Source: Omnitrophica bacterium GWA2_41_15
GTDB lineage: Bacteria > Omnitrophota > Gorgyraeia > Gygaellales > UBA12090
Length of the DNA stretch: 64,000 nt
Direction: 5' to 3'
Assembly: GCA_919902675.1 (NCBI GenBank)
Contig: CAKKRH010000001.1
Span: 128,003 to 192,002, forward strand
Shown: positions 40,362-64,000 of the stretch, piece after piece
Numbering within the stretch: the stretch's first letter is position 1
Layout of the letters: every line of letters starts with the position of its first letter
Program-made: the position numbers and the translations under genes
The notes under the pieces: generated by a model
What the model was told of the DNA's origin: nothing
The model's database searches: none
The model's input: only the letters and a program-made list of their open reading frames with translations

Positions 40362-40392
40362 TTGACAAAGGTTAGCAAATTTGCTAACCTTT
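40362..40392 (+). promoter_or_regulatory. Promoter -35 box plus perfect 26-nt palindromic operator of the TA module
   Basis: TTGACA at 40362-40367, overlapping AAAGGTTAGCAAA|TTTGCTAACCTTT (40367-40392). Confidence 0.6.
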
Positions 40393-40408
40393 GTGTGAGA
40401 GGCGATGT

Positions 40409-40816
40409 GTGGCAATTCCAAAGAAAGAAGAATACATTTTCTATCAGGGAGAGAAGTTTCAAGTAGAGTTTTATTTTACTGTGGCAGGAAAGATGCCTGC
40501 TAAAGAGTGTTTGGAAGAGACGGCTTTAGATGTAAAAGTAAAACTGGCTACTCTGGTAAAATATATGGCAGAGCAGGGCAAGATTTTCGATATAACAAAA
40601 TTTAGAGTGGTGGATTCTAAAGAAAAAATCTATGAGTTTAAGCCTTTGCAATATCGTTTTTTTAATTTTTTCTATGAAGGAAGAAAAATAATCATTACCA
40701 GCGGCTATATGAAAAAATCTCAAAAGGTGAGTGGAAAAGATTTAGAAAGAGCCAGAGAGATAAAGAGAGATTATGTTTATAGAGTAAAAGGGGGTAGTTA
40801 TTATGGAAAAGAATAA
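40409..40816 (+). CDS. Type II toxin, RelE/ParE superfamily (Gp49/HigB-like)
   Basis: KIYEFKPLQYRFFNFFYEGRKIIITSGYMKKSQK is typical of the Gp49-like family. GTG 40409 behind GAGAGG chosen as start. Confidence 0.75.
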   Translation: MAIPKKEEYIFYQGEKFQVEFYFTVAGKMPAKECLEETALDVKVKLATLVKYMAEQGKIFDITKFRVVDSKEKIYEFKPLQYRFFNFFYEGRKIIITSGYMKKSQKVSGKDLERAREIKRDYVYRVKGGSYYGKE

Positions 40817-41120
40817 AACATATATGGATAAGTTAATGACCGAAAAAGATTTTCGGGAAAAGTTTGATCAGAAATACCAGAATCTTTGTATCGCGGAGCA
40901 GATTGCCCAGGCGCGTCATCAGGCGCATTTAACTCAATCCGAGCTGGCTAAGCGAATCCATACCACTAAATCGGCTATCTCTCGTTATGAAAGCGCTGAT
41001 TACGATAAATACGGGATTACACTCTTAACTAGAATTGCCAAGGCCTGTGGAGCAGATTTAAAAATAATTTTTGTTACTTCTAAGCATATAAAGAATGGCC
41101 ATCGTTTTGCTGCCGTTTAA
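40803..41120 (+). CDS. XRE-family HTH antitoxin (HigA-like)
   Basis: HLTQSELAKRIHTTKSAISRYES helix-turn-helix. Overlaps the toxin stop by 14 nt. Confidence 0.78.
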   Translation: MEKNKTYMDKLMTEKDFREKFDQKYQNLCIAEQIAQARHQAHLTQSELAKRIHTTKSAISRYESADYDKYGITLLTRIAKACGADLKIIFVTSKHIKNGHRFAAV

Positions 41121-47199: not shown

Positions 47200-48570
47200 A
47201 TGATCCCTTCAGGCATATCTCCCACAGAAGCGGCATTTGAGGTTGTTGGCTTGGTTAATGCAAAGTCAATAATAGATTTTTTGTTTTTTGAGACCAAAAT
47301 AGGCTTAGCAGTCTTTCTTATTGGAATGTTAACCGCTTTATGGAGATCGGTCAAGGAAACAGACTTCTCAGTTTTATGGAGTTACTTGATGATGTTTTGT
47401 ATTCTTTTATTTATCTTTATTAAGCCTATGGCCGGTCTTGAGAATGCTACTTCTACCATGGAAGCAGCCGGCTGGAAAGGCACCACAACCCAGGAAGCCC
47501 TAAAAGAAGTCTTTATTGATTCTGGCAAAGCTCGGGCTAGCTCTTTAGGGCTTGTTTTAATCAGTCAGGGTTACAATGCCATTATCTATGGCACGGTAAG
47601 CGCTATTACTAAGGTTACTCAGCAGAAAGATTTCAACTATCTTAACAACCCTTTTATCGTAAATAAGGTATCTTTATATTTACAGCATTTTAGCAGTGAA
47701 GGCATTAAAAAGGATAACGCCTTAAAGAAGGATCTCGAGGACTTCCTTAGAAACGACTATCCGCAGACCTTGGGACGAATGGTTAACAACGGCAAGACTC
47801 AAGCAAGCATAACCAAGAAATGGTGGCCAGGGGATGAAGAGATCATAATGAACTATGATTTAAATCAGAGAAAGCGTTGGGAAGCTCTGGATTTAAAACT
47901 AACTGACTATATCAAAACAGAGATAGGCAAATTAGGCGCTAAAGGCCCATTTACCGACCTCTTCATAGATTACAAGGCAATAAAGATAAAGCTGCTTGCC
48001 GTACACACTGAAAAGGCAGCTACAGACATAGCATCTAATATGACCGGCTACGGCCTAGAACCTAAGGCTGTCAGCTTGAGCTGGATGATGAGGCAGCCTG
48101 CCAGCTGGCTGGCCTTTGCCTCATCATTTGTAGGGCAGTTCTTTTCAACCACGCTGTCTGAGTTTATGATTAAGGCTCTGCCGTACTTACAGGGCTACGC
48201 GGTGATGATTATCTACAGCTTATTTCCATTTACTTTGTTGCTGTGCCTTTTATTTGGAACCTTCAGTATTTTAAAGGAGTATTTTATCTATCTCTTTTGG
48301 GTGAAATCCTGGGTCATTGTTTGGGCTCTTATTCATTACGCGGCTATCTATATGTCAACCTTGCAGACAAGGCTGGGTTCCGAGCCCAGCTCCTGGTTCT
48401 TTGAGAAGCCCTATTTTAATACGGTTACCGGAGTGCTTTTGGTTATGTCTCCGGGGATAGCCTGGTTTATGACTAAAGGGGTATTATCCGGCATAGGAGA
48501 AGCAGCTACAGCCTTGACTCTTCATGCGGATAAAGGGACAGGAAAAGTAGGCTCTAAAATAGGAATTTAA
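47200..48570 (+). CDS. Polytopic T4SS inner-membrane protein (VirB6/TrbL or TraG N-terminal-domain-like)
   Basis: 456 aa with TM clusters at both ends and a soluble middle. First gene of the T4SS block. Family call is by architecture only. Confidence 0.4.
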   Translation: MIPSGISPTEAAFEVVGLVNAKSIIDFLFFETKIGLAVFLIGMLTALWRSVKETDFSVLWSYLMMFCILLFIFIKPMAGLENATSTMEAAGWKGTTTQEALKEVFIDSGKARASSLGLVLISQGYNAIIYGTVSAITKVTQQKDFNYLNNPFIVNKVSLYLQHFSSEGIKKDNALKKDLEDFLRNDYPQTLGRMVNNGKTQASITKKWWPGDEEIIMNYDLNQRKRWEALDLKLTDYIKTEIGKLGAKGPFTDLFIDYKAIKIKLLAVHTEKAATDIASNMTGYGLEPKAVSLSWMMRQPASWLAFASSFVGQFFSTTLSEFMIKALPYLQGYAVMIIYSLFPFTLLLCLLFGTFSILKEYFIYLFWVKSWVIVWALIHYAAIYMSTLQTRLGSEPSSWFFEKPYFNTVTGVLLVMSPGIAWFMTKGVLSGIGEAATALTLHADKGTGKVGSKIGI

Positions 48571-48574
48571 TAGT

Positions 48575-48910
48575 ATGGAAAACTTTGGGATGACCATTAG
48601 AAAAAGCCGCGAAGAGCTTGCCTTGAAAGCATACGAACTCGCCAGGGAAGTTGGCATTAACCCTGTATATATAACCCAGATTGAGAAACATGGTAAATTG
48701 CCTTCTCCTATTGTCATGAAAAGAATCAGTGAGGTGTTATGTGATGAACAGCTCTTTGGTATGTATCTTAAGATGAAATATCCTGTGGTTTACGGTAAGG
48801 CCAGCAATAGAGAAATCGGCTCTGTATTTAATATAACCAACGAGGTCTTAATGGAGGAGCTAGGGAAGATAAGGAACATATTAGAAAGAATCGAGAAGAG
48901 GATAAATTAA
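48575..48910 (+). CDS. XRE-family HTH regulator
   Basis: IRKSREELALKAYELAREVGINPVYITQIEKHGKLPS helix-turn-helix. Confidence 0.7.
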   Translation: MENFGMTIRKSREELALKAYELAREVGINPVYITQIEKHGKLPSPIVMKRISEVLCDEQLFGMYLKMKYPVVYGKASNREIGSVFNITNEVLMEELGKIRNILERIEKRIN

Positions 48911-49032
48911 TGCGCAATTTAATTTCTAAAAAATTCACCGTTACCTGTGACTTACCTAATTTGAATTGCGTGAATCATCTTGAGAATAATTTTTTAAGTA
49001 TGTTCTTTACCCCCAAGCACTTAAAGCTATTC

Positions 49033-49091
49033 GCGTGCGGCGAGCCTAATAGGCGCTTTCGTCAACAACCCTGACGAAGGCTACCGCACGC
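49033..49091 (+). promoter_or_regulatory. Nested inverted repeat, candidate oriT/nic-region hairpin
   Basis: GCGTGCGG (49033-49040) pairs with CCGCACGC (49084-49091). It encloses TTCGTCA-ACAACCC-TGACGAA. 80 nt upstream of the replication-relaxation gene. Confidence 0.35.
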
Positions 49092-49170
49092 TCGTTCCAA
49101 TCAAAATCACCCAAACCCAACCCCTAACCAAAAACCCACAAGGGCAGGGCGGGGCAAGAAAGGCAAAATC

Positions 49171-49944
49171 ATGAAAAGAGGAAGATTAACCCAGGAAGAA
49201 CAGACACGCAGAATTAAGTCAGTGCTAATTTTTATCTATACTTTCCGATACGCTACACGAAAGCAATTGGAAATGTTTATTCAGGTAGTAATGAATTTAT
49301 CCTATACGCGTTGGCTTATAGATTATTCCCTTAGAGAGGGTTTTATCAGCGCTTACTATGAGCCTTTATTTAAGACAAAAATCTACTATTTGACCTATAA
49401 AGGCAAGGAAATGATTTGCGATCAAGCCATGGTTGAGCATTACCATTTTGAGAAGAGCCATGCCGGGTTAAATACCTTTATTCATCACAATAATATGATA
49501 GAGACTTTTATTATCCTTAAAAGCCACCTGAATATTAAAGAATGGGTGTGCGAGTGGGACCTAAGGAAAGGTAAAAGAGCCGGAGAAAAAATCCCTGATG
49601 GTTTAATAATGTTTACGGATGGAATGAACGTAGCTTTAGAAGTAGAAACCCGGTATAAAAAGCTGGGCATTTTAAGGAACCTCGTTAAAAGATACCGCTA
49701 CGATATCGAAAAGATTTCCCGGTATCACTGCGTTTTGGTAGTTGCTTCGAGCAGGTTTAATTATGACGGCTTAAAGACTAGGCTCTATAATCTTGCCCCG
49801 GAATTTTGCTCAAAAGCTCTTATTCTGTCTGATTTGGGGATGCTTGAGCTGGGGATGTGTTTTTACCAGAATAAATTAATCCACCTGGAAGAAGCAATCG
49901 GATTATTAAAAGTAGGAGGACAAGTCCATGGACAAGCCATTTAG
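49171..49944 (+). CDS. Replication-relaxation family protein
   Basis: N-terminal winged-helix-like region and IPDGLIMFTDGMNVALEVETRYKK block, resembling the Replic_Relax family (from memory). Confidence 0.5.
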   Translation: MKRGRLTQEEQTRRIKSVLIFIYTFRYATRKQLEMFIQVVMNLSYTRWLIDYSLREGFISAYYEPLFKTKIYYLTYKGKEMICDQAMVEHYHFEKSHAGLNTFIHHNNMIETFIILKSHLNIKEWVCEWDLRKGKRAGEKIPDGLIMFTDGMNVALEVETRYKKLGILRNLVKRYRYDIEKISRYHCVLVVASSRFNYDGLKTRLYNLAPEFCSKALILSDLGMLELGMCFYQNKLIHLEEAIGLLKVGGQVHGQAI

Positions 49945-52192
49945 CTTAAAAGGACTGTTTATAAAGATACTGCTGCTTATTCCGCTTATCTATATCGGTT
50001 TTGGCTGGTATGTCGGCCTAAGCTACGGCAGAAAGGCCGCCTTGTTTGGCCCCTATAAAGATATTCCTGTGATGATGAAAACTCATCTCTTGGGCTCATC
50101 TCTTAGTGAGATTTCCGGCAGTAATACGCTTGTGATGGTTGTGCCGCCAGGAGAGGCTGATAAATCTGAACTAGACTCAACCTATTTTAAGCTAACCGGC
50201 TATTTTGAGGTCCCCGGAACTTGGAACTTTGATTTTACGCCTTCTGATGCTGATGATAGCTTTAAAGAGACATTTGTTTTAACCGGAAGCTATTCCCGCG
50301 CCATAGCCCATGAGCTTAAGAACCCTAACCGTAGCTTGGGAAGCCTGTCAGTAAGAGAGCTTAATCATTTCCTTAAGGCAACCGGCAGGATCAAAGACAT
50401 GGAAAAGTTAAGGCCCTATCTTTTTCTGGCAAGGATGGAAGAGAAGTATCCTTGGCTGTACTCTGATACTGTGCTTTTATCCAGGGCAATGGGAAATATC
50501 TTTAAAGATAATATGCTTCCTTATGACATATTAGGGTTAGTAGGTATAGTAATCTTCTTTATCGGATTAGCGACCAGAGGCTTTTGGCTGTGGGGATATT
50601 ACCTATTTTGGGTATTTGCTTATTGGCTGGGCAGGATTGGATACCACGATATAAATCTAGCCTTTACTAATAACGGTTACCAGATAATCCTTTGGAGCTT
50701 CTGGAACGGTTTTATAGTCAAAGAGGGCAGACTGTTTTTGCTGATTGCCGCGGGATTATATCTTATCAGTTTTGTGGCCTTGGCTGTTGTGTACGTATTC
50801 AAACATATCTTGCCGCGCAAAAAGCGGGAGCTTGAGGATTTCTTCAAAATCGACAAAGACGCTTTAAAAAGAAAAGAACTCTCCATTGAGACTGTTGAGT
50901 TTAAAAGAGTACACTATGACATCAATAAAAAGTTAAATCAATACGCGAAAACAGACAAGTATTTTTTGGCTGTCTCAGATAATAAACAAGATGTTGTCGT
51001 TGAGGAAAGCGCGCTTAACCGCCATCTGCACGTATTAGGCCCGACCGGAGGCGGAAAGACTTCTTTAGTGATACTTCCTTTAAGCAGACAGGCGATAGAA
51101 AAAGGAAGGGGCTGCTGCTTTATTGACTTTAAGGGCGATGATGTTTTTAAGAAGTATGTTCAGCGGAAGGCGAAAGAAAAAGGCAGGAGGTTCTATTATT
51201 TCAGCATTGACCCTAATGAGCCGTCGGCAGGATATAATCCGCTGTCTTCCGGCGATATCCATTCCAAGGTAGACAGGATTATGACCGCGCTGGAACTGAT
51301 TTATCATGGCCCGGCAGGTTTTTACTCTAACGTGCAGGCGATGACTTTTGTTGAATTATTAAAAGAAATGGTTCAGGGAAAGAAAGAGATAAATTTCCTT
51401 TCAGTTAAGGACGCTTTGGAGGATCCTATCTTCTTAGAGAGAACGGATGTGCGCGCCCAGGACGTTAAGGGCCTTTTGGCGGCAATTTCCTGGATCGCGG
51501 GAATTGAGGTAATAAACAGGGATGGGTTAGATTTAGCTAAAGTGATCAAGAACGGGGATGTGGTATTCTTTGCTCTGAAAAGTCAGGTGAATACGCGCTT
51601 AGCTGAGGCAATTGGAAAAATGCTTATCATTGATATTAAGTCTCAGGCTGTATCACGCCAGGAAACCGATCCGCCATACTTTATCTTCATTGATGAATTC
51701 CAGAATTTAGCCTGCTCGCATTTTGTAGATGTAATCTCTAAGGTAAGGAGCGCTAATTTTTGTCTGGTTTTGTCTAATCAGTCGCGGGGAAACTTATCCA
51801 ACGTATCAGCCGCGTTTGAAAACGCCATTTTTACCAATTCCGCGACCAAGGTAATTTTTATGCAGGAGGACCCCTTTGACGCGAAATTCTGGTCAGATAA
51901 AACAGGGCAGACCACCTATCAGGATAAAAGCGTATTCCAGGTGGATAATATAACTACTGATAAAACAGGCGCGAAGCTTGACGGCCTAAGATCTGCCCAG
52001 GGCAATATCCGCACAGCTGTTAAAAACTACATCTCAGAGAATGTGTTTTTAAGGCTGCCCTTTTCTAAATCCGTTATTTTTTCCAGAGGCAAGCTTACAG
52101 TAATAGCTAATCATGAATTCTTGTTTGGTAAGGCAGAAAGGGATAAGATTATTTTAAGTCCGTTTGAATACGAGAGGAAGAAAGCTGCATAA
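49928..52192 (+). CDS. Type IV coupling protein (TraD/VirD4 family)
   Basis: N-terminal TM helices, Walker A LGPTGGGKTS, Walker B YFIFIDEFQNL. 754 aa. Confidence 0.8.
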   Translation: MDKPFSLKGLFIKILLLIPLIYIGFGWYVGLSYGRKAALFGPYKDIPVMMKTHLLGSSLSEISGSNTLVMVVPPGEADKSELDSTYFKLTGYFEVPGTWNFDFTPSDADDSFKETFVLTGSYSRAIAHELKNPNRSLGSLSVRELNHFLKATGRIKDMEKLRPYLFLARMEEKYPWLYSDTVLLSRAMGNIFKDNMLPYDILGLVGIVIFFIGLATRGFWLWGYYLFWVFAYWLGRIGYHDINLAFTNNGYQIILWSFWNGFIVKEGRLFLLIAAGLYLISFVALAVVYVFKHILPRKKRELEDFFKIDKDALKRKELSIETVEFKRVHYDINKKLNQYAKTDKYFLAVSDNKQDVVVEESALNRHLHVLGPTGGGKTSLVILPLSRQAIEKGRGCCFIDFKGDDVFKKYVQRKAKEKGRRFYYFSIDPNEPSAGYNPLSSGDIHSKVDRIMTALELIYHGPAGFYSNVQAMTFVELLKEMVQGKKEINFLSVKDALEDPIFLERTDVRAQDVKGLLAAISWIAGIEVINRDGLDLAKVIKNGDVVFFALKSQVNTRLAEAIGKMLIIDIKSQAVSRQETDPPYFIFIDEFQNLACSHFVDVISKVRSANFCLVLSNQSRGNLSNVSAAFENAIFTNSATKVIFMQEDPFDAKFWSDKTGQTTYQDKSVFQVDNITTDKTGAKLDGLRSAQGNIRTAVKNYISENVFLRLPFSKSVIFSRGKLTVIANHEFLFGKAERDKIILSPFEYERKKAA

Positions 52193-52212
52193 AATTAAAA
52201 GGAGGAAAAAAT

Positions 52213-52536
52213 ATGCGCAGAGATATTAAAAGGAAGAGATTTATGCTAAAGGCCTTTGTGGCCTTGTGTTTGGTTCTGGGACTTTCGATGGCGGTCGCGC
52301 CTTTTGTTTTCGCGCAAATAAGCACTACCCAAGAGCAGCAGGTAGTAGGAGACTTTGCTACTTTTATCATCAATATACTCACCGGGCCTGTATCAAAGAT
52401 CTTAGGGGCAATATTGCTGATTGGCGGAGTAATCGCGCTTTTAAACGGAAAACAGGAAGTAGCCATTGCCTGCGGTTTTGGGTTCCTGATCCTTATATTT
52501 GTACCGAAGATCTTGGAGGGATTGTTTAAACAATAA
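52213..52536 (+). CDS. T4SS pilin-like protein (TrbC/VirB2/TraA class)
   Basis: 107 aa with a long signal peptide ending FVFAQ, then two hydrophobic helices (GPVSKILGAILLIGGVIALL, IACGFGFLILIFVP). Confidence 0.65.
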   Translation: MRRDIKRKRFMLKAFVALCLVLGLSMAVAPFVFAQISTTQEQQVVGDFATFIINILTGPVSKILGAILLIGGVIALLNGKQEVAIACGFGFLILIFVPKILEGLFKQ

Positions 52537-52823
52537 TGAGAAAATGCCTGCGCACTATTGATAAACCTCTGCTTCTTTTTGGCCTGGAGCCTGAAGACGT
52601 AGGGATACTGGCTTTAGCCTGTGGCGCTATGTTGATTTTATTCGATACCTTTTACGCGGGCCTGGTTTTCTTTGGAGGCTGGATGTTTTTAAGGTTAATA
52701 AAACAAGGTAAGCCTCAGGGTTATGTTATCCATTTGTTTTATAAATACGGGATTCGTATAAAAGGGTTGATCGAACCTCCAAAAATAATCAGCAGGTATT
52801 CGGTTTTTAGGAGAGAGGATTAA
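52536..52823 (+). CDS. TraL/VirB3-like small T4SS membrane protein
   Basis: 95 aa. IDKPLLLFGLEPEDVGILAL followed by two TM helices. Sits immediately after the pilin gene. Confidence 0.55.
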   Translation: MRKCLRTIDKPLLLFGLEPEDVGILALACGAMLILFDTFYAGLVFFGGWMFLRLIKQGKPQGYVIHLFYKYGIRIKGLIEPPKIISRYSVFRRED

Positions 52824-52825
52824 AA

Positions 52826-53017
52826 ATGCAGATGCAAAACTTCACCATGCTGGAGCTTTTATTGGTAATTCTAATCTTTGCCTTTTACTTCTTGCCGACT
52901 TTGATCGCGTTCTTAAGGCAGCACAAAAATAAGCTGGCGATATTTTTATTAAACCTGCTTTTAGGCTGGACTGTCTTGGGGTGGGTGGTTTCGTTGGTCT
53001 GGTCGGTAATAAAGTAA
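52826..53017 (+). CDS. Superinfection-immunity (Imm_superinfect) family small membrane protein
   Basis: FLPTLIAFLRQHKNKLAIFLLNLLLGWTVLGWVVSLVWSV matches the family signature from memory. Confidence 0.7.
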   Translation: MQMQNFTMLELLLVILIFAFYFLPTLIAFLRQHKNKLAIFLLNLLLGWTVLGWVVSLVWSVIK

Positions 53018-53031
53018 ATCTTACGTCTGTA

Positions 53032-53086
53032 TACAGAGAGTTTTTCTGTCGCATCATATTTCTGGGCCGCCTGAGAGAGAATACCC
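53032..53086 (+). repeat. Direct repeat A flanking the AT-rich cassette
   Basis: TACAGAGAGTTTTTCTGTCGCATCATATTTCTGGGCCGCCTGAGAGAGAATACCC. Similar copy at 57362-57416. Confidence 0.85.
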
Positions 53087-53193
53087 ATAGAAACACATTG
53101 ACAAATTCAATAGTTATGATAAATTAATGCTGTAAGAAGATTATAATCGTCCCGAGTTGGAAGGGATAAATCCTGGACGTTAAAAAAGCAAAA

Positions 53194-53228
53194 CCTTCGT
53201 AGACATAAATCTGCGGAGGTTTTTTTTC
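53194..53228 (+). terminator. Rho-independent terminator
   Basis: CCTTCGTA (53194-53201) pairs with TGCGGAGG (53212-53219), two G-U pairs, followed by T8. Confidence 0.65.
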
Positions 53229-53286
53229 TTCAGAAAGTAGTAAGATATGGATTTAGGAGGAATGTATGTAGTTATGGGGGGATTAT

Positions 53287-53970
53287 ATGCGCGCAAAAGA
53301 GATTTATTTTGGGCTGTTAAAAAGATGGGAAAGTGAATGTAGTGACGGACCTTGGTTAGAGTCTCTAAAAAAGCAATACAATATAGGTACTAACGAATGG
53401 ACAGGAGATAGGTTCTTCTTAATAACGATTTCATGGGGGCCGTGGAGACCAGAAAGGCAGATGGATGTTTGGATATTAATGAAAAATAAATATCCAAAAG
53501 TAGTAGAGGATTTACGCGAAGCAAGAGAAGATTTCAAAGGTTTTCCATTGCCTTGGCAGAACGCAAGAATAATGGCTGCTTCGCGATATTTAAGAAACAA
53601 TTCGAAAGCGCTTAAGGATGTAATTTCCGAGTTGCGTCCACTTCCAGGACTAGAAGCTATTAATTATCTCGCTGATATCTGTGAAGTTAAACAAAATAAA
53701 AAGACAATAAGCTGTTTTATAAGAGATTTTTTACTCAAAGACACTTTTCCTATTGATACGAGAGTAGCTGCAATGCTTTCGTGTTTAGAATTGCCAAAAA
53801 CGGAAGAAGAAGTTGTCGAGGTATGCAAAAAAGAAGGAATTAGCTCAAGGGTATTAGATAGAATGTTTTATTCCCAATGGGATGAGTGTCCGGGTAAATT
53901 AAAAGAGAAATATAAATGCGAAAAATGTGGCATTGAAAGATATTGTCGAGATTCTTTTCTTAAAAAGTAG
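53287..53970 (+). CDS. HhH-GPD superfamily DNA glycosylase-like protein with a C-terminal Cys4 motif
   Basis: LPGLEAINYL...NKKTISCFIRDFLLKDTFPIDTRVAAML resembles the HhH plus catalytic Asp region of Ogg2/EndoIII-type enzymes. C-x9-C-x2-C-x5-C (CPGKLKEKYKCEKCGIERYC) resembles an Fe-S cluster loop. Confidence 0.45.
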   Translation: MRAKEIYFGLLKRWESECSDGPWLESLKKQYNIGTNEWTGDRFFLITISWGPWRPERQMDVWILMKNKYPKVVEDLREAREDFKGFPLPWQNARIMAASRYLRNNSKALKDVISELRPLPGLEAINYLADICEVKQNKKTISCFIRDFLLKDTFPIDTRVAAMLSCLELPKTEEEVVEVCKKEGISSRVLDRMFYSQWDECPGKLKEKYKCEKCGIERYCRDSFLKK

Positions 53971-54018
53971 GACCTTCATAGGAACGGGTTCTGTGAAGGT
54001 TATGTGCTTTAGACAACT

Positions 54019-55149
54019 ATGACTGAAAAAATAAATTTATATATCTTAGGTGCTGGGGCTTCTAATCCGGATGGGGTTCCAGTTACAAGTGAATTAATAG
54101 ATCAGGCATTTTGGAATTTTGGCGGAAAATATGATAACAAAGATATGTTTCTCATGGGAACTTGGGACAAAGAAACGGAAGTTTTACCTATTGTAAAACC
54201 CGTTCTAGAATTATACGATAAATTCTACGGAACAGATTTAGTTGAAAAGTTAAAAAATTATTATAAAGATGGCTATCATCCTGTTAGTTTAGGTATTGCT
54301 ACCAACAACATAGAAGATTTTTTCAGTAGGTTATATTATTTATCTAAAGGAATAGAAAGTTATAATCTTAATTTAACTAAACAAGAAATCTCAGATTTAT
54401 CAAAAAAAGCTAATTATTTATTTTTCCATACTTTAGCCCATTCTACTATAGGAATTTCAAAGCCGAAATATTATTCAACTTTTGTAGAAAAACTGCTCAA
54501 GCGTAATGGTAAACATTGCATAATGTCATTTAATTATGACCTACTCTTGGAGGATGTTTTTACATCCAGAGATTATTTAAAATATGATGGGTATAAATGG
54601 CTTTATCCTGAAGAGTTAAAATGGTCTTATTGTATCAATTTTAATAACGTCTCTGGTGTACCATATGACTTTCCGCAAGAAGAGCAGGCGAGAATACTTT
54701 ATTTAAAATTACATGGCTCTTTAAATTGGAGTTTTTGCCCTCTGACTCAAGAAGTTTCAATGCATACGCTACATGCCGATGCATGGATATATAAAAGGTT
54801 TTATAAAGAGGAACTTCGTTGTCGCAATGGTTCTCATGTTAACTTACCACTTTTAATTCCTCCTATAAAAAATAAAGAAATAGATAGTCCGGAGCTTAGA
54901 TCTTTATGGAGTAAAGCCTATAACTTAGTTTCTCAAGCAAAAGAGGTTCATATTATCGGCTATTCTTTGCCGGAAGTTGACATAGAAGCAAATAAATTAT
55001 TAGGACAGCTTCCTGTTAAAATGTTGGAGAGAATAGTAATAGTTAACCCTAATAAGAACCATATAAATAAGTTTATTAGAATTTTGCAGGATAAAAGCAA
55101 AATTTCACTATTTGATAATTTTGAGCAATACCTTGTAAATTATAAATGA
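54019..55149 (+). CDS. SIR2-like (SIR2_2 type) domain protein
   Basis: LYILGAGASNPDGVP, IMSFNYDLLLED (catalytic Asn context), YLKLHGSLNW (catalytic His context) and HIIGYSLPEVD. Confidence 0.7.
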   Translation: MTEKINLYILGAGASNPDGVPVTSELIDQAFWNFGGKYDNKDMFLMGTWDKETEVLPIVKPVLELYDKFYGTDLVEKLKNYYKDGYHPVSLGIATNNIEDFFSRLYYLSKGIESYNLNLTKQEISDLSKKANYLFFHTLAHSTIGISKPKYYSTFVEKLLKRNGKHCIMSFNYDLLLEDVFTSRDYLKYDGYKWLYPEELKWSYCINFNNVSGVPYDFPQEEQARILYLKLHGSLNWSFCPLTQEVSMHTLHADAWIYKRFYKEELRCRNGSHVNLPLLIPPIKNKEIDSPELRSLWSKAYNLVSQAKEVHIIGYSLPEVDIEANKLLGQLPVKMLERIVIVNPNKNHINKFIRILQDKSKISLFDNFEQYLVNYK

Positions 55150-55216
55150 AAGGAAGGATCTGCTCCGATAACGAAAGAGACTTTATTTCGGAGTAACATA
55201 ATCCCATCCGTTGTTT

Positions 55217-56239
55217 ATGAAAATAGAAGAGTTAGATTTAGGAAAAGCAAAAAGTATCATTATAAAATGGGCGCAGACCAAACCATTTATAACCAAGGTT
55301 TATTTATTTGGCTCAAGAATTACTGGTAATAGCAAAAAGACAGGTATGCTTGTTAGGCCTGATAGTGATTTAGATGTAGCTTTAGAATTTACAAGGATTT
55401 CTCAAGAAGAAAATCTTCTTACTACTTGGACTTGCGAAGCGAAAAACTGGCGTAAGGAATTATTAGACCTTTTAGGTTTTACTAATGAAAAAGATTTGCA
55501 CTTGGAGTGGCTTCATGAAACAGAAGCTCCTCATGTAGCGCGGTATACAGAAGAAGGCTCTGAACTCATATATACTTCGATGGAAAAATGGTTTGAGGAA
55601 CTTAATAAAGAGGCTTTCTTAATTTTTCATCACCTTAATTTATTCAAACAATTGTTCGAGATTCTCGATAAAAATAAATCTCTGGAAAACATGGATCAAA
55701 CTATTTTTCAATGGATGAGAACAGCATTTACTGCGGATTTAGTTATTGCTATAGGTCGTCTTCTCGATGATAAAAAAAGCTCTCGTAGTTTTATTCGTTT
55801 CCTTCATGAGTTAAAAGATAGAGATGACTATTTGAGTCGCGAGAAATATGTTGAAAAATATAATAATTTTCCCGGGGTCAGTTCTGTAAGAAAATATATG
55901 CTTGAACTTGCGAATAAACATTTCGATAGTTTAGCTGGGGAAAACACTAAGATTTATCCGGCAGATAATGTAAATGAAGATATATCTATACTAACCCAAA
56001 GAACTCCATGCGGGGATATCATTGGGTTTAGAAATCAATATTTAGCGCATCTTAGTAAAATAAAATATTCTTCGCCTCCTACGTATGGCGAGTTATTCAA
56101 GACTTTCGAAATTATTGAAACAGTAATGAAAAAGTATAATTTGATTATGAACGCAGCTCATGTAGATAGCTTTACTCCTATTCCGCAAGGGTATTGGCAA
56201 CAGCCGTTAACCATTCCTTGGATTGGAGAAGAGAAATAA
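55217..56239 (+). CDS. Fusion of an MNT-type nucleotidyltransferase domain with a HEPN-like (AbiU2-like) domain
   Basis: VYLFGSRITGNS...RPDSDLDVALEF (GS...DxD NTase motif). C-terminal FRNQYLAHLSK fits the HEPN Rx4-6H motif. ATG 55217 preferred over TTG 55211. Confidence 0.55.
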   Translation: MKIEELDLGKAKSIIIKWAQTKPFITKVYLFGSRITGNSKKTGMLVRPDSDLDVALEFTRISQEENLLTTWTCEAKNWRKELLDLLGFTNEKDLHLEWLHETEAPHVARYTEEGSELIYTSMEKWFEELNKEAFLIFHHLNLFKQLFEILDKNKSLENMDQTIFQWMRTAFTADLVIAIGRLLDDKKSSRSFIRFLHELKDRDDYLSREKYVEKYNNFPGVSSVRKYMLELANKHFDSLAGENTKIYPADNVNEDISILTQRTPCGDIIGFRNQYLAHLSKIKYSSPPTYGELFKTFEIIETVMKKYNLIMNAAHVDSFTPIPQGYWQQPLTIPWIGEEK

Positions 56240-56270
56240 GGTCATCTAAAACCAGAAACTCATCTGAATA

Positions 56271-57311
56271 ATGGCAACTATTCGCTGTCATACAGTCCCT
56301 CAATTTTATTTAAACTATTTTTTACAGTCCGGATCGAATCTTCTTTGGGTGTATGACAAGAAATATTTTGATATTCGACCCCAGTCTCCTGTGAATACCA
56401 CCGTAATAGGAGATTACTATTTATCAGAACCCGATGATAGAGGAGAGAAAGATCAAAGGGCTGAAAAATTTCTTTCCGTTATAGAAGGCTGGGCAAAGCC
56501 AATTTTAGATAGATTAGTTAATCGTCCTAATAGTTTAGTAGGAGCGAATAAGGATGTTCTAGCAATGTTTATTGCTTTTACACATTGCCGAAGCCCACGC
56601 TCCGTTCAAGCTATTAAGGAAATAAGCGAGGCTGGTGTTGATTATGCGCTTGATCAAGTTAAGGAGATAGCTCTAGATTCTATAGAGATGAGGAAATTAT
56701 ATGAGAGGTTCTCGCAAAAAGAAAACAATGAGTCTAATCTATCTTATGATGAGTTTATTCAAGTAATGAAAGATCCAAAAAATGGCGTTTATACCGAGGT
56801 CAATGAAAAATACGCTATCGGAGAAAGTTTGCTTCTTGCCGAAGTAGTTCATCGAAGAATTAAGGATTTATATTGGCACATACGCATAGCCTCTAAGGGA
56901 CATTTTTTCATTACTTCTGATGCCCCGGTGACAATATTTACACCCCTTCCGAATAATAAAGCAATTTTTGGCGGTGGATTAGAATTACCTACCGTGCAGT
57001 TGACTTTCCCGTTGTCTCCGAGGGTATGTTTGCATATGGACAAAAATCCATTAGGTCAGACTGAACGGGCCGATGTCAACTATGTCAATGAAATAAATCG
57101 CAGATCAATATATATGGCCGAGCGCTTTGTAATATCCCCTTTTCGCAGTAATAGAATAAAAAATATGGTTGAGAAATACTCAGCTACCTATAAAACCCCT
57201 AAGATAGATGCTGAGGAGATTAAAAATATGCTCAGAAAGGAAGGTTTAGATCTTAGAGATAAGCTGAGCGAGGGGTTTAAGGAAAAACTGGATTTACGTG
57301 AGCACGATTAA
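56271..57311 (+). CDS. DUF4238 family protein
   Basis: N-terminal HTVPQFYLNYF matches the DUF4238 signature H-x-V/I-P-Q-F-Y-L (from memory). Confidence 0.6.
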   Translation: MATIRCHTVPQFYLNYFLQSGSNLLWVYDKKYFDIRPQSPVNTTVIGDYYLSEPDDRGEKDQRAEKFLSVIEGWAKPILDRLVNRPNSLVGANKDVLAMFIAFTHCRSPRSVQAIKEISEAGVDYALDQVKEIALDSIEMRKLYERFSQKENNESNLSYDEFIQVMKDPKNGVYTEVNEKYAIGESLLLAEVVHRRIKDLYWHIRIASKGHFFITSDAPVTIFTPLPNNKAIFGGGLELPTVQLTFPLSPRVCLHMDKNPLGQTERADVNYVNEINRRSIYMAERFVISPFRSNRIKNMVEKYSATYKTPKIDAEEIKNMLRKEGLDLRDKLSEGFKEKLDLREHD

Positions 57312-57361
57312 CTTTCTCTTCTAAGGCTTTACCATTTTCAGATAAGCTGTTTACAGAGAGT

Positions 57362-57416
57362 TTTTCTCCTGCGCCGTATTTCTGGGCGCCCTGAGTGAGA
57401 ATACCCTTTGAAATAA
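57362..57416 (+). repeat. Direct repeat B flanking the AT-rich cassette
   Basis: TACAGAGAGTTTTTCTCCTGCGCCGTATTTCTGGGCGCCCTGAGTGAGAATACCC. Same orientation as repeat A. Confidence 0.85.
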
Positions 57417-57484
57417 TTTTACAAAAGATTTTACAAAGGATTGCTGAAAAGTCCAAAAATAGGCAGCAATCTCTGATTAAAAGA

Positions 57485-57606
57485 TTAAAGGCAGATTACA
57501 GAGATTAAATGCTCGTCGGAGAAATCTGTGTAATCTAAGGTAATCTATGTAATCAGAGGTCGCTGATATAGTTTTAGGAGTTTTTCAGCGACCTCTACAA
57601 AAAATC
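57485..57606 (+). promoter_or_regulatory. Cluster of GATTA / TAATC short repeats plus a 12-bp-stem hairpin abutting the traE-like promoter
   Basis: GATTA at 57485, 57493, 57504 and 57513. GTAATC at 57540, 57550 and 57559. AGAGGTCGCTGA (57565-57576) pairs with TCAGCGACCTCT (57595-57606). Confidence 0.5.
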
Positions 57607-57634
57607 TTGACAAGTTAAAATTATGGTGTATAGT
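57607..57634 (+). promoter_or_regulatory. Sigma70-like promoter of the traE-to-traC-like operon
   Basis: TTGACA (57607-57612), 16-nt spacer, TATAGT (57629-57634). Confidence 0.6.
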
Positions 57635-57692
57635 AATTTTTAGAAGTTAAAATTTAGCAGCAGACAGTCCTATTTGAAAAACAAAGGGGCTG

Positions 57693-58355
57693 GTGTTTCT
57701 GAGGAAAGTCTCAGGAATGCCGGCCCCTTTTTTATTTGCCATGAATGATCTTAAACCCGAAAAAGTAAAACGCGCCGGTTTCGTTGAGAAATGGGCTCAT
57801 GCCGAACAAACATCCGCATTTTTAGGAATCAGCCTTTATGCCGTGATTGCTTTCTGCATAGCCTTGCTAGTTACACTATTTAAAGTATCCACCAAGCCAC
57901 AGTCTATTTATTACATCCCCAGCGCCCAGGAAGCAGGTGTTGCCTATCCAAACCGCGTAGATAAAGCAGTAGTATGCGGCTTTGCCTCAAACTGGCTCCT
58001 GAACCGCAATAACTTTACGCCTGTTACAGTCAAGGATACTTATATGAGGGCAATGCGTTATATGGCGCCAGCGCTTCTTTCCAGGACCAAGGCAAACCTT
58101 GAAGATGAAATATCCAGGGTTACGCGCGACAACATCTCCTCCTTATTTTCCCTGAGTAAAGAACCGGAATTAGAAGACTCAGGGATAGATTTCAAAGTGA
58201 CATTGACCGGAGAAAAGATTATTTTCATGGGCAAGGAAAAATTGGATGACCGTATTCTTCGCTACACCATAACCTTGCAAAGAATCCCGCCTATTGAAAC
58301 CAACCCCTACGGCCTGGTGATTGCCGGGGTTAAACAGGAAGAGGTAGAGCCATAA
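57693..58355 (+). CDS. TraE/VirB8-like bitopic T4SS protein
   Basis: Single TM helix (FLGISLYAVIAFCIALLVTLF) plus a periplasmic domain. Position before the TraK/TraB-like genes. Start uncertain (GTG 57693, ATG 57717 or ATG 57741). Confidence 0.55.
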   Translation: MFLRKVSGMPAPFLFAMNDLKPEKVKRAGFVEKWAHAEQTSAFLGISLYAVIAFCIALLVTLFKVSTKPQSIYYIPSAQEAGVAYPNRVDKAVVCGFASNWLLNRNNFTPVTVKDTYMRAMRYMAPALLSRTKANLEDEISRVTRDNISSLFSLSKEPELEDSGIDFKVTLTGEKIIFMGKEKLDDRILRYTITLQRIPPIETNPYGLVIAGVKQEEVEP

Positions 58356-59077
58356 TGAAAATACTTAAAAGACTATTTTATTCGATGATTATTTCCGGAC
58401 TTGTTCTTACGGGGAAGGCCGATGCTTCAAATGCATCTGATTACAATGATGAGATTACTTTAAGATTAAAAGCAGGCATGATTACCGAAGCGGAATTCCC
58501 GGACAAAATCGCCAATGTCACAAAAAGCGTCACCAGCGAAATCTTACAGATTGAAACCTTAGGAAACAGGATTTTCTTGCTACCCATAGAAAATTTGGAA
58601 TCTCAAGTTTACGTAGTTACCCAGGATAATGTTTCCTATTGCCTGCGTTTAATCATGGATGAAGCCCAAGCCCCTACCCGCATAAAGATTGAAAAGCCTC
58701 ATCAGGCAGCAAATGAAGAGCAGGGTAGAGACACAGCAAATACGGTTGAACTCATGAAAGCGCTTCTTACGGGCAGGCAGCCGCCTGGTTCAGTCAGCTC
58801 AAAGCTGCATCCTCAGGATATTTTTAATAACGCTAAATTGCGCATCACTGTAGATGAGGTTTATGAGCTTCAGGGTGGCACAAAAGCCTTTGTTTTGACC
58901 TTTGAGAACCTCATAGATAAACCGGTTGTGGTGCCAATTGAGCATATAGAGCTGCCGGGTCTATTGGCCATAAGCGTAGACAGCCAAATATTGGAGGCGC
59001 GGCCGCTGGATACAAAGAGGAAGCCCTCAAAACATACCACCAGGGCTTACATGATCGTGGAAGAGCTGACGCAATGA
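58355..59077 (+). CDS. TraK/VirB9-like periplasmic T4SS protein
   Basis: Signal peptide. The ITEAEFPDKIANV...NRIFLLP...VYVVTQDNVSYCLRLI pattern resembles TraK. Confidence 0.55.
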   Translation: MKILKRLFYSMIISGLVLTGKADASNASDYNDEITLRLKAGMITEAEFPDKIANVTKSVTSEILQIETLGNRIFLLPIENLESQVYVVTQDNVSYCLRLIMDEAQAPTRIKIEKPHQAANEEQGRDTANTVELMKALLTGRQPPGSVSSKLHPQDIFNNAKLRITVDEVYELQGGTKAFVLTFENLIDKPVVVPIEHIELPGLLAISVDSQILEARPLDTKRKPSKHTTRAYMIVEELTQ

Positions 59078-60309
59078 AGATAACCCTTGATAAGATTCCC
59101 GGCTTTAATAAGCTTCCGCCGGTGCTGCGTAATAATCCGAAGTTAACCTTCGTAATTATTTCCTCTTTAAGTATAGCTCTTACGCTGCTGGTATTTACAG
59201 GAAGCAAGGAAACCAAAAATATCAGGAAAAGCCTGGATCCGGCTGAGGCTAAAAAAACCGCTGGTCCGGGGGAAGATAAAGATGTCGGTGTCTTAGTAGG
59301 TTCTGTGGATACAAAGTCTTATGTTAACCGCATTGAAAAGCAGTATTACGATATCACGGCAAAGTTTGATTCTCTCAATGAGCGTATTGGAGGGTTTGAG
59401 AACAATGTTCAAGAGCTGCGTAAAAACCAAAGCCAGATTAGTAAGATTGTCGTGGATTTGGATAAAAGAGTAACGGACACTCTTACGCAGAATAGTGGTT
59501 TAACAAAGCAAGTCTTTGAGCGGGGGCAAAGCACCGACTCTATCGAAGAGACACTTCTTGGTCCTCTTTCTATGTCGCAACCAGCCGGTAAGATAATTAA
59601 TCTGGAGATGGCTAAGGTTGGCGAAATCAAGATTGAGGAAAAAGTTCCCGGGAAGAGGTACGTGTATCTTCCCTTGGGAAGCTTTGTCAAGTGCACTCTT
59701 CTCACCGGTGTGTATGCCCCTGCTAATGAAAGTAACCCCTTGCCGGTATTAATCAGCATTGACGAGGCCTTTTACGGCCCGAATAACACCAGGATTCCCC
59801 TCAAGGGTGCCTTTGCCATTGGCAAGGCTGTAGGAGATACGGTCTCAAAAAGGGCGATTATCCAGGTGGTGAGTTTTTCTACAGTATTGCCGGATGGAAA
59901 GGTTTTTGAACATGAGGCGAATTTGGGTTATTTGGCTGATAGTGACGGACGCTTAGGTATACAGGGTGAGTTAATTTACAATACCGGAAAACAATTAAGC
60001 CTGAGTTTTTTATCCGGATTCCTGGCAGGAGGCTCTGAGGCACTCTCCCAGGCCGAGACCTCAACCGTTACCGGCGCCTACGGCCAAACCTCTAAAAACG
60101 TTACCGGAAACACCGGCCGCTATTCCATGTTTTCCGGACTGGCTAATAGCGCGCAAGGGATGTCCAGTTATTACCAAAAACAATTAGAAGCCATGATCCC
60201 CGCGGTAAAAATTGAGGCAGGCAAAAAAGCTGTCTTGGTTATCCAGAAAGGAGTACAAATTGAAGGCCTTGAAGCACCTCACGATAATTTTGGTTCTCTT
60301 GATTACTAA
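59074..60309 (+). CDS. TraB/VirB10 (TrbI) family T4SS protein
   Basis: N-terminal TM helix, coiled coil, and C-terminal block LPLGSFVKCTLLTGVYAP...PVLISI...GDTVSKRAIIQV...DGRLGIQGELIYNTGKQL. Confidence 0.75.
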   Translation: MKITLDKIPGFNKLPPVLRNNPKLTFVIISSLSIALTLLVFTGSKETKNIRKSLDPAEAKKTAGPGEDKDVGVLVGSVDTKSYVNRIEKQYYDITAKFDSLNERIGGFENNVQELRKNQSQISKIVVDLDKRVTDTLTQNSGLTKQVFERGQSTDSIEETLLGPLSMSQPAGKIINLEMAKVGEIKIEEKVPGKRYVYLPLGSFVKCTLLTGVYAPANESNPLPVLISIDEAFYGPNNTRIPLKGAFAIGKAVGDTVSKRAIIQVVSFSTVLPDGKVFEHEANLGYLADSDGRLGIQGELIYNTGKQLSLSFLSGFLAGGSEALSQAETSTVTGAYGQTSKNVTGNTGRYSMFSGLANSAQGMSSYYQKQLEAMIPAVKIEAGKKAVLVIQKGVQIEGLEAPHDNFGSLDY

Positions 60310-60661
60310 CGGATGTGTTGCGTCTAAAGGATTAGTTAAAGACAGCCCAAACAAGGTAATGGACGTATACCTGGAAGCTGTATCCAGCGGCCGGGCTGAC
60401 GCGGTTAGTTATATCAAGGAAAACTTAAAAGTAAATAAAGCCTTTGGCTATGTCAAGCCTTATGTCCCGGTGGTTGAGCCGGCGGATGTCAGGCTTGTCT
60501 GGCTTCCGGCGCATAAATCAAAATATTCACCTGAAGTTTTAGTCAGCGGACACTGGGTCTATATTATGGTAAAAGAGTCGCGCTGGTTTATTGATTCGCA
60601 AACTCACGGTGAAGCCAAGATTCCTTTGATAGTCCCTTATAAGGAAACTATTAAAAAATGA
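60260..60661 (+). CDS. TraV-like T4SS lipoprotein
   Basis: TTG 60260 behind AAGGAG gives MKALKHLTIILVLLITNGC (lipobox). Position between the TraB-like and TraC-like genes. Confidence 0.5.
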   Translation: MKALKHLTIILVLLITNGCVASKGLVKDSPNKVMDVYLEAVSSGRADAVSYIKENLKVNKAFGYVKPYVPVVEPADVRLVWLPAHKSKYSPEVLVSGHWVYIMVKESRWFIDSQTHGEAKIPLIVPYKETIKK

Positions 60662-63195: not shown

Positions 63196-63634
63196 AAAGT
63201 TTCTGATTATTTGTTTTATTCTGCTCTTAGGCGGCTGCTCTACTCTGGGCAGGAAAGACAAAGTTTTTGAAACAGGCTATCGTGCGGGAGTAAGGGAGAA
63301 TATAGAAGATTTTGCCCAGGCTTTCCACGGGAATGATTTTCCTTACTTTTACTGGTCAAGCCCGGTTGTGCAAAACGTTAAAATTCCGGCGCATATTGAG
63401 AACGGCGTATTTATCCCGGAGCATAATGAGCCGGTGGTGATTACACCTGCCGAATGGAGGAATAAACCGAGTTATCCGATAAATTGCCCCCCAGGAAAGA
63501 AAGAACCAAAACAGAAAGAAGGAGGAGAAGACTATGCGTTTAATTATCTTAATTTTAGTGTCAGGGATATTACTGTTCTGCCCGAATCTTTTACTTGCGT
63601 TAAACCAGGAAACCAAGACAAAGATTCTCATTGA
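63182..63634 (+). CDS. Hypothetical lipoprotein of the T4SS block
   Basis: Signal peptide with lipobox LLGGC. The 3' ~100 nt overlap the next ORF, so the true end or function of the tail is uncertain. Confidence 0.4.
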   Translation: MDYIKKFLIICFILLLGGCSTLGRKDKVFETGYRAGVRENIEDFAQAFHGNDFPYFYWSSPVVQNVKIPAHIENGVFIPEHNEPVVITPAEWRNKPSYPINCPPGKKEPKQKEGGEDYAFNYLNFSVRDITVLPESFTCVKPGNQDKDSH

Positions 63635-64000
63635 TGAATGGAAGCAACAGGCGGAAAAATTAGAGAAAAGCCCCCTTAAAGAAAAGGAAGGCCAAGACGA
63701 GGCACCTTCGGTTAAAGTAGAAAGCCCTAAACCAGAACTACCGGCAGTCTTTGACAAAAAAATTACCCTGCGCTCATCCGGAGTAAATTTGAAAACGCTT
63801 CTTAACAAAATTGGCGAAGTAACCGGATACAACGTTGTATATGATCCCGAGGTTGATTCAAATATCAGCGTGTCGCTTGACGCACGGGATGTGCCTGTAT
63901 GGCGGGCATTAAATACCGTGTTTTTTCCTTTAGCTTACGGTTTTAAGATAAAGGATAATGATTTGGTCATCCTGTCCCAGGAGACGCGCGCCTTTAAGCT
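63534..64000 (+). CDS. Partial (5' end) secreted protein with a secretin-N0/STN-like domain
   Basis: ATG 63534 behind AAGGAGGAG. Signal peptide MRLIILILVSGILLFCPNLLLA. ITLRSSGVNLKTLLNKIGEVTGYNVVYDPEVDSNISVSLDARDVPVWRALNTVF resembles secretin N-terminal domains. Open to the window end and absent from the ORF track. Confidence 0.5.
   Translation, partial: MRLIILILVSGILLFCPNLLLALNQETKTKILIDEWKQQAEKLEKSPLKEKEGQDEAPSVKVESPKPELPAVFDKKITLRSSGVNLKTLLNKIGEVTGYNVVYDPEVDSNISVSLDARDVPVWRALNTVFFPLAYGFKIKDNDLVILSQETRAFK

Follow-up and report, generated by a model that had tools for sequence, protein, structure and literature searches.

Bacterial immunity has only recently been recognised to include glycosylases that destroy chemically modified phage DNA, a layer that sequence annotation largely fails to see. 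Within the helix-hairpin-helix (HhH) superfamily, Dag1 and Dag2 together with 17 further HhH-fold proteins of integron cassettes protect against phages carrying 7-deazaguanine modifications (Getz et al., bioRxiv 10.1101/2025.10.29.685425). The Dag proteins are encoded in AT-rich mobile DNA and were missed by sequence-based annotation; most of them form a branch of their own, some lying near Tag and AGOG, and Dag1 is apparently bifunctional with an essential Lys, its key residues being K118, D184 and W188 (bioRxiv 10.1101/2025.10.29.685425). The subject here is the gene at 53287..53970 in a stretch of 64,000 nucleotides (nt), hereafter the window, from the genome of Omnitrophica bacterium GWA2_41_15. 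An earlier note on this DNA had proposed that the gene codes for a glycosylase-like protein, adding that DNA glycosylases acting on modified phage bases had been reported as defence proteins; for the HhH superfamily this is in print with Dag1 and Dag2 (bioRxiv 10.1101/2025.10.29.685425). Judged from sequence, structure model and genomic context, the protein adds a new member, so far without annotation, to the HhH-GPD glycosylases of the EndoIII type, and a conjugative element carries its gene as independent cargo.

Other glycosylase-related systems have been described as well. END nucleases consist of an inactivated EndoIII/Ogg-like domain, which senses hypermodified DNA, fused to a phospholipase D (PLD) nuclease (PMC12191111). 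Brig1 and Brig3 are enzymes of the uracil-DNA glycosylase (UDG) superfamily (PMC11078745; PMC13160076), and restriction glycosylases are an established concept, the fold of R.PabI being called HALFPIPE (PMC10273834).

With the Dag proteins the window protein shares an HhH fold that escapes annotation, a Lys/Asp site and the genomic setting, namely a small single gene on AT-rich moving cargo with defence genes as neighbours. It differs from the Dags described in being EndoIII/MutY-like, with the canonical Lys-x17-Asp and a tail of four cysteines (Cys4), and in its host, which is an uncultured groundwater bacterium, whereas the Dags come from a Vibrio integron. The main text of the Dag paper has none of the words 'iron', 'Fe-S' (iron-sulphur) or '4Fe' (Getz et al., bioRxiv 10.1101/2025.10.29.685425). 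Since some of the Dags are placed near Tag and AGOG and that text does not speak of Fe-S, the EndoIII-like Cys4 family is probably a lineage separate from the Dags. The END nucleases likewise have an EndoIII-like domain in a defence context, the best PDB match of which is also 4UOB, and they are the nearest precedent for a sensor function (PMC12191111). However, the END domain as described there lacks catalytic residues and is fused to its effector, whereas the window protein keeps Lys and Asp and stands alone, with 227 aa and no other domain. The UDG-superfamily enzymes Brig1, Brig2 and Brig3 have an alpha/beta fold with a central beta-sheet, in contrast to the model of the window protein, and the fold reported for PabI-type restriction glycosylases also differs from HhH.

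Predicted fold, active site and Cys4 tail

The AlphaFold2 model of the protein, built on an alignment of 70 sequences of the wider family (profile A2), is all helical with no beta-strands (DSSP) and has a predicted local distance difference test (pLDDT) value of 94.2 and a predicted template modelling (pTM) score of 0.91. It consists of two helical domains with the HhH at their junction, the arrangement of the HhH-GPD superfamily. When the model was compared exhaustively with 48,161 PDB representatives (VIA-align wide search), the 22 highest-ranking rows, with Z from 8.8 to 14.9, were all enzymes of the HhH fold, 20 of them DNA glycosylases and two DUF2419 queuine-salvage entries; the rows after these had Z of 5.8 and below, and no unrelated fold exceeded 3.5. 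Fe-S-bearing enzymes fill the first six places: DrEndoIII-3 (14.9), E. coli EndoIII (13.7), MutY (13.1), DrEndoIII-1 (13.0), MutY again (12.9) and NTHL1 (12.9). Every row listed by Foldseek against pdb was an HhH glycosylase (TM 0.40-0.62), and the best match in the viral BFVD collection was an archaeal-virus EndoIII at 7e-3. Of the ten rows from the structure search of the ESM Atlas, nine were PF00730 clusters and one was an Ogg-HhH (PF22175) cluster; eight of the ten had TM values of 0.61-0.71 and two were partial matches at 0.49. On the evidence of the model, the protein is of the HhH-GPD fold and of the EndoIII/MutY type, and the fold proposed earlier is thus borne out by all of these comparisons.

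The similarity to the EndoIII/MutY branch (DrEndoIII-3, 4uob/8a5g; E. coli EndoIII, 2abk) extends over the whole length of the fold, with 206 and 192 residues aligned, respectively, and includes the Lys of the second HhH helix, the Asp 18 residues further on and the four C-terminal Cys. Sequence identity to this branch, however, is only 12-18%, and the protein is matched neither by PF10576 nor, at E <= 1, by PF00730 (HhH-GPD), the curated cut-off of which is not reached. PF00730 is also absent among the families matched at E <= 0.1 by the 70 A2 members, one of which matches PF22175 (Ogg-HhH) at 0.029; as a sequence family it is thus beyond the reach of the present Pfam model, although it has the HhH fold. 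It has invariants of its own compared with EndoIII/MutY, namely GPW at residues 51-53, W90-Q91 and R146-D147. The gene is found on mobile cargo, whereas an Nth of the genome's own (L012:1369-2040) is encoded in its core part; with two canonical PF00730 genes located elsewhere in the same genome, the gene is an accessory one.

Comparison of A2 with PDB gave as the best match the Ogg2-type 8-oxoguanine glycosylase/apurinic-apyrimidinic (AP) lyase 9o00 (E 0.0028), followed by clostridial Ogg and endonuclease III. Ogg2 (9o00, 3knt, 3n0u; Z 11.7) shares with the protein the K-x2-S-x-F-x-R motif and the I-D-R-H box, but it has no Fe-S loop and its alignment ends near residue 200. In the 9o00 alignment K139 and D157 fall on positions at which the related entries 9o02 and 9o01 have substitutions (K to S and D to N, respectively). 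The same pairing is seen when A2 is aligned with the Nth of the genome itself (hhalign probability 92.5%, E 4.9e-7, 139 columns), in which the Lys aligned with K139 stands in GRKT and the distance from Lys to Asp is equally 18 residues. In an alignment of 224 family members to the A2 model, 219 retain the Lys (the exceptions being three gapped fragments, one N and one R) and 221 the Asp (two fragments and one H); R146, D147, W90 and Q91 are also nearly invariant. Both K139 and D157 are kept, and therefore a bifunctional glycosylase/AP lyase is expected. Neither a different fold nor a loss of the Lys/Asp equivalents among homologues, the two outcomes that had been set against the original proposal, was found. 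The segment from which that proposal started, LRPLPGLEAINYLADICEVKQNKKTISCFIRDFLLKDTFPIDTRVAAMLSCL, comprises residues 116-167 of the 227-aa protein, and since the motifs in it are conserved among homologues they are more than a chance resemblance. In one detail it needs correction: the LPG taken for the hairpin belongs to the beginning of the first HhH helix (residues 121-131), and the hairpin is formed by residues 132-138, just before K139 and the second helix (139-148).

The C-terminal segment that had been likened to the EndoIII cluster loop, CPGKLKEKYKCEKCGIERYC, corresponds to residues 201-220 and has the spacing C-x9-C-x2-C-x5-C, as given in the earlier note. Alignment of a nine-sequence profile of close homologues (A1) with the own-genome Nth is weak overall (probability 9%), yet all four C-terminal Cys pair with the cluster-loop Cys of Nth; the first spacer is longer than in that loop type. 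A tail of the form C-x7-10-C-x2-C-x5-C is present in all eight full-length sequences of the close group (the window protein and P0002-P0008). In the VIA comparison the Fe-S-bearing structures align through residues 225-227, whereas the alignments of the clusterless MagIII, Mag1, Ogg2 and OGG1 end at residues 200-206; DrAlkA (2yg8) reaches residue 215. Of 225 family sequences, 14 have a four-Cys tail (C-x4-12-C-x2-C-x4-6-C), all of them in the subclade of the window protein, and 11 others have a three-Cys variant (C-x-C-x-C), while the remainder are without a Cys tail. A quick maximum-likelihood tree of 70 family members and the own-genome Nth contains one group (Shimodaira-Hasegawa-like approximate likelihood ratio test, SH-aLRT, 91) with Cys tails in 17 of its 18 rows, the window protein being inside a set of six Cys4 sequences (support 98); rooting on Nth is unreliable in this quick tree because the outgroup branch has a length of 3.79. 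The residues of the tail suggest that the four-cysteine loop most likely holds a [4Fe-4S] cluster. Three-Cys tails (C-x5-7-C-x4-5-C) were also noticed in the mid-distance relatives P0010, P0011, P0013, P0015, P0017, P0019, P0026 and P0030; here a Cys of the C-x2-C pair has been lost, sometimes in sisters of four-Cys forms, and such relatives may have a cluster with a non-Cys ligand or a decaying site.

The reading frame itself is genuine, an open reading frame (ORF) of 227 aa on the forward strand. Eight homologues with 53-57% identity align from residue 1 (MRAKEIY...), seven of them spanning 97-100% of the 227 aa, and a G-rich ribosome-binding site lies upstream of the ATG at 53287; these support 53287, not M59, as the true start. 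The existing gene call of the genome for this ORF is a 169-aa form (P0001) starting at M59.

The cargo slot and the neighbours of close homologues

As had been noted, the gene is the first of its cassette, heading four co-directional genes in a low-GC block. It is followed by a SIR2-like gene, a gene for a nucleotidyltransferase (NTase) fused to a HEPN domain and a DUF4238 gene (Table 1). The GC fraction of the block (53106-57346) is 0.32-0.37, compared with about 0.44-0.48 in the rest of the window, and the block is flanked by a pair of 79-nt direct repeats. The right part of the window is occupied by a conjugative type IV secretion system (T4SS), which includes TraG_N, a TraD/TraG-type coupling protein, a pilin, TraL and an Imm_superinfect-family protein and, past the cassette, TraE, a TrbI-like protein and TraC.

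The DNA upstream of traE was compared in seven other genomes of the phylum sample (L026-L032), in which the traE copies are 73-94% identical. In two of them (G061 and G272) only 173 and 187 bp without any gene separate the Imm_superinfect gene from traE, the slot being empty, and in three (G149, G103 and G153) the slot measures 1.1-1.6 kb and holds small toxin-antitoxin-like or other genes. In the closest relative, G330 (TraE 94%), a slot of 4.8 kb carries genes for a HigB toxin, a helix-turn-helix (HTH)-M78 peptidase protein, a 'Beta protein' and two unknowns, and in G353 a slot of at least 3.3 kb has genes for a HEAT-repeat protein and a RES-domain protein. None of the four cassette genes of the window is present in any of the seven related elements. 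Since the slot is either empty or otherwise filled in these elements, it is a cargo hotspot and the cassette is one alternative load. The repeat pair is a feature of the hotspot rather than of the cassette, because copies of the left and right types (L026 475-533 and 5028-5106) bound the different 4.5-kb cargo of G330. The carrier is an integrative conjugative element with a swappable, repeat-bounded slot.

Two DNA runs of groundwater metagenomes extend this picture. The word depth of the cassette is about 10-12 against 47-365 in the flanking backbone (run X6), and metagenome contigs depart from the window at 53020 and 57439-57456; the deeper backbone and the contigs that break away indicate that element variants with other cargo coexist in the same communities. 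Across 52000-58500 in runs X6, X7 and X11 the T4SS backbone is several-fold deeper than the cassette, and also more polymorphic. Metatranscriptome contigs cover the glycosylase gene as well, although they are no proof of expression, since such libraries can contain DNA and the contigs give neither strand nor level.

The three other loci of the close subfamily have different neighbours. In an Omnitrophota single-cell genome (L001) the homologue comes after an N6_N4 methylase and a GmrSD restriction enzyme and is followed by a membrane protein, a lipase, an ORF6N protein, a Gp49/HTH pair and a Fic protein. On a metagenome contig (L005) it is preceded by a type I HsdS gene and by genes for two membrane proteins. 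In a related genome (L002, 8001-8183) only the first 61 codons remain, at 93% identity and with an abrupt cut, as a deletion remnant adjoining genes for a ParE-type toxin and a DEAD-box helicase, with a HerA-like/ABC ATPase cluster nearby. Including the window, the company of the Cys4 subclade is of the defence type at all four loci, whereas SIR2, NTase-HEPN and DUF4238 genes are found at none of the other three. Conversely, 29 of the 400 other genomes in the sample have distant relatives of the SIR2-like protein, and none of these 29 matches the glycosylase family; in the same sample the family is present in two of 401 genomes (G000 and, as a weak match, G104). The gene therefore keeps defence-type company without a fixed partner. 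A conserved leader moving with the gene was also considered and rejected, the upstream DNA of the four loci being unalignable.

Defence, repair and other explanations

Beyond the close subfamily, a HMMER scan of 1.84 billion representatives at E <= 1e-3 found 123 clusters (50% identity clusters from metagenomes), none of them named and none with a Pfam domain. The majority, which is clusterless with regard to Fe-S, occurs in uncultured viral contigs, represented by six IMG/VR loci (L006-L011), three of which are on contigs of 208-312 kb. The neighbours there include an ERF recombinase, helicases, an SNF2-methylase fusion and an exonuclease. On the 312-kb contig the family gene stands among NAD-salvage genes (NAD synthase, NAPRTase, isochorismatase-type), and at L007 it overlaps an SNF2-N6_N4 methylase gene. 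Three members are fusion proteins: P0041 also contains an ATP-dependent DNA ligase with a Hint domain, and P0025 and P0052 contain metallo-beta-lactamase-fold hydrolases; these ligase and hydrolase fusions imply that the family acts on DNA. For the phage branch of the family these observations support a repair role. The close subfamily was not found when viral contigs were scanned with A1, and the A1 scan of metagenomes gave a single partial locus. Nine of ten family proteins have no PHROGs family, the tenth being matched via its fused hydrolase domain only, and tblastn found no match to the window protein in collections of cultured phage and plasmid records and none to a wider-family member (P0131) in cultured phage records.

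The explanation we favour, at about an even chance of being right, is that the gene codes for an autonomous, mobile, bifunctional glycosylase/AP lyase which acts as a single-gene defence in the manner of the Dags. As its residues suggest, such an enzyme would flip a base from duplex DNA, K139 would displace the flipped base through a Schiff base, and the strand would be nicked by beta-elimination. By analogy with the Dags, its role would most likely be to remove modified, non-canonical bases from the DNA of invading phages or plasmids. The gene would be an independent module in the swappable slot, with no share in conjugation itself and no tie to the three genes beside it.

Several observations weigh against this explanation. 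The 227-aa protein is detected by no Pfam, NCBIfam, PADLOC (PADLOC-DB 2.0.0, 2023) or PHROGs model, a PDB search with the single sequence returned nothing at E <= 10, and one with A1 gave chance-level rows only. No Foldseek match in pdb reaches 1e-3, the best E-value being 2e-3. The first Cys spacer is of nine residues (7-10 in relatives) and not six as in EndoIII/MutY, and confidence in the model is lowest at the Cys loop (pLDDT 60-84). Proteins of the HhH fold are also capable of other chemistry, and two such proteins match the model, namely the queuine-salvage enzyme DUF2419 (Z 11.3 and 10.7) and PaMx11 gp46, a phage glycinyltransferase (Z 5.3). The statistics of genomic context are thin, as the close subfamily is readable at three other loci, one of them a remnant. 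Finally, the replication and recombination setting and the fusions of the wider family speak for repair of an element's own DNA no less than for defence.

Repair is the chief rival explanation, which we regard as less probable than defence. The protein would then remove damaged bases (oxidised pyrimidines or similar) from the DNA of the mobile element itself during transfer or replication, and its defence neighbours would be coincidental in a slot that collects any cargo. The wider family with its 123 representatives speaks for this, since at the viral loci it is found beside recombination and replication genes, and its fusions to a ligase and to metallo-beta-lactamase-fold hydrolases look like a compact pathway of excision, end-cleaning and ligation; the nearest structures, moreover, are those of repair enzymes. 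On the other hand, the genome already has its two canonical HhH-GPD genes, and the A1 scan found no close subfamily in viral contigs. The Cys4 subclade is in defence-type neighbourhoods at every one of its four loci rather than in replication modules, and the other cargo of the hotspot is toxin-antitoxin or defence-like. The earlier note had instead suggested a sensor, which would detect modified phage DNA and activate the SIR2-like, NTase-HEPN and DUF4238 effectors, the four genes making up one system. The genes are indeed co-directional with gaps of 31-61 bp, share a low GC content and lie within one pair of flanking repeats, and EndoIII-like domains are described as sensing modified bases in END nucleases (PMC12191111). 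We consider the proposal unlikely, because the close homologues adjoin different defence genes: the three neighbour families are absent from all three other loci, and the 29 genomes with SIR2-like relatives have no glycosylase match. The window protein also keeps its catalytic Lys and Asp, unlike the inactivated END domains, and a stable hairpin comes after its stop codon. Elsewhere SIR2, HEPN and DUF4238 proteins are each a single-gene type of cargo, which also counts against a four-gene system.

A glycosylase linked to methylation, either of the restriction type acting at unmethylated sites, as R.PabI does, or of a Mig/Vsr-like mismatch type correcting deamination caused by a methyltransferase, seems very unlikely. 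It could account for the N6_N4 methylase two genes upstream of the L001 homologue, for the overlap of a viral family member with the SNF2-N6_N4 methylase gene and for the structural look-alikes in the Atlas, which include clusters of C5-methylase fused to HhH-GPD, and restriction glycosylases are established (PMC10273834). However, no methyltransferase is found in the cassette or among the 28 scanned ORFs of the window (37491-63634), L005 shows an HsdS fragment only, and R.PabI is described as having a different fold, HALFPIPE (PMC10273834). Highly improbable, finally, is an HhH enzyme that is not a DNA glycosylase and acts on nucleotides or in group transfer, like the queuosine-nucleotide glycosylase DUF2419/QNG1 or the phage 5-PmdU glycinyltransferase. 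It is the DUF2419 and gp46 matches given above that bring it up, but these rank below 13 rows of DNA glycosylases, the Lys/Asp pair with its 18-residue spacing and the Fe-S loop are typical of the DNA-acting EndoIII branch, and none of the 70 A2 members matches Pfam families of this kind at E <= 0.1.

Whichever function applies, an unannotated family is added, which comprises at least 123 metagenome clusters (50% identity) and for which Pfam, PHROGs, NCBIfam and PADLOC have no model. Its members have intact EndoIII-type catalytic residues, an Fe-S motif in one subclade and, in the present case, a candidate-phylum groundwater bacterium as host. If the defence function is true, uncultured lineages and the Fe-S branch of EndoIII would come within the range of glycosylase immunity, with the relatives borne by phages as an interesting counterpart; if the gene merely serves the repair of a mobile element, the finding is an ordinary one. 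One may go further and place this one HhH family on both sides of the conflict between phages and hosts, a proposal of low probability. Its clusterless members would be a base-excision repair kit of phages, sometimes fused to a ligase or hydrolase, and the subclade with the Fe-S loop a stand-alone immune glycosylase of defence islands and conjugative elements. The EndoIII-like pocket of that subclade might then be aimed at other modified bases, such as modified pyrimidines, and, if so, the targets would extend beyond those of the Dag (7-deazaguanine) and Brig (hydroxymethylcytosine and modified T) enzymes. As a clean hotspot bounded by repeats, the region from the Imm_superinfect gene to traE could itself be mined for more cargo.

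Other features of the window

The features of the locus are collected in Table 1.

Table 1. Position and basis of the features in and around the cargo slot (window coordinates).
Feature	Position	Strand	Basis and remarks
Imm_superinfect-family gene, small membrane protein of 63 aa, left hotspot backbone	52826..53017	+	PF14373 7e-21
Left copy of 79-nt direct repeat	53027..53105	.	80% identity to right copy, spacing 4320
Terminator-like hairpin with U-run, 64 nt before start codon	53190..53231	+	Fold of 53130-53235: -32.2 kcal/mol, z -4.0
EndoIII-like HhH-GPD glycosylase-like gene	53287..53970	+	ATG-to-stop ORF, 227 aa; homologues over full length
HhH region, residues 121-148	53647..53730	+	DSSP; aligned to HhH of Ogg2 9o00 and own-genome Nth
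K139 codon (aag)	53701..53703	+	Aligned with Schiff-base Lys of Nth and Ogg2
D157 codon (gat)	53755..53757	+	Aligned with catalytic Asp of Nth and Ogg2
Fe-S-cluster-loop-like motif C201-x9-C211-x2-C214-x5-C220	53887..53946	+	Cys aligned with own-genome Nth loop
13-bp hairpin without U-run, directly 3' of stop, between glycosylase and SIR2-like genes	53971..54001	+	-18.6 kcal/mol, z -4.0
SIR2-like gene	54019..55149	+	PF13289 SIR2_2 E 3e-4, below cut-off; PADLOC SIR2 models down to 3.9e-8
Gene for Pol-beta-type NTase fused to AbiU2-type HEPN	55211..56239	+	PF18765 4.7e-6; PF18734 1.5e-13
DUF4238 gene, last of cargo block	56271..57311	+	PF14022 2.1e-42
Right copy of 79-nt direct repeat	57347..57425	.	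0 such pairs expected by chance
traE-like T4SS gene, right hotspot backbone	57741..58355	+	PF05309 7.5e-9 (longer ORF form)

The 79-nt repeat folds no better than shuffled sequences, and the end of its left copy contains a TTGACA hexamer resembling a -35 element, with a promoter-like site at 53098-53125. As the Rfam search over 48000-64000 gave two chance-level miRNA rows only, the repeat and the leader hairpins belong to no known RNA family in that collection. One layout is seen twice, at 53098-53231 and 57607-57738: a strong sigma-70-like promoter, a long U-run hairpin no more than about 100 nt further on and, shortly after it, the start of a gene. The promoter before the glycosylase gene reads TTGACA-16-TAAATT and the one before traE TTGACA-16-TATAGT, with hairpin z values of -4.0 and -5.1, respectively; both layouts may be attenuator-type leaders or small RNAs.

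The Imm_superinfect gene is kept between traL and traE in six of the seven related elements, which is an unusual place of residence for such a gene within a T4SS operon. Farther to the left, a Macro-NUDIX fusion gene at 39309-40271 is followed by a Gp49-like/HTH toxin-antitoxin pair at 40391-41120, and these genes (39309-41120) lie upstream of the housekeeping genes for chorismate synthase, shikimate kinase and DprA.

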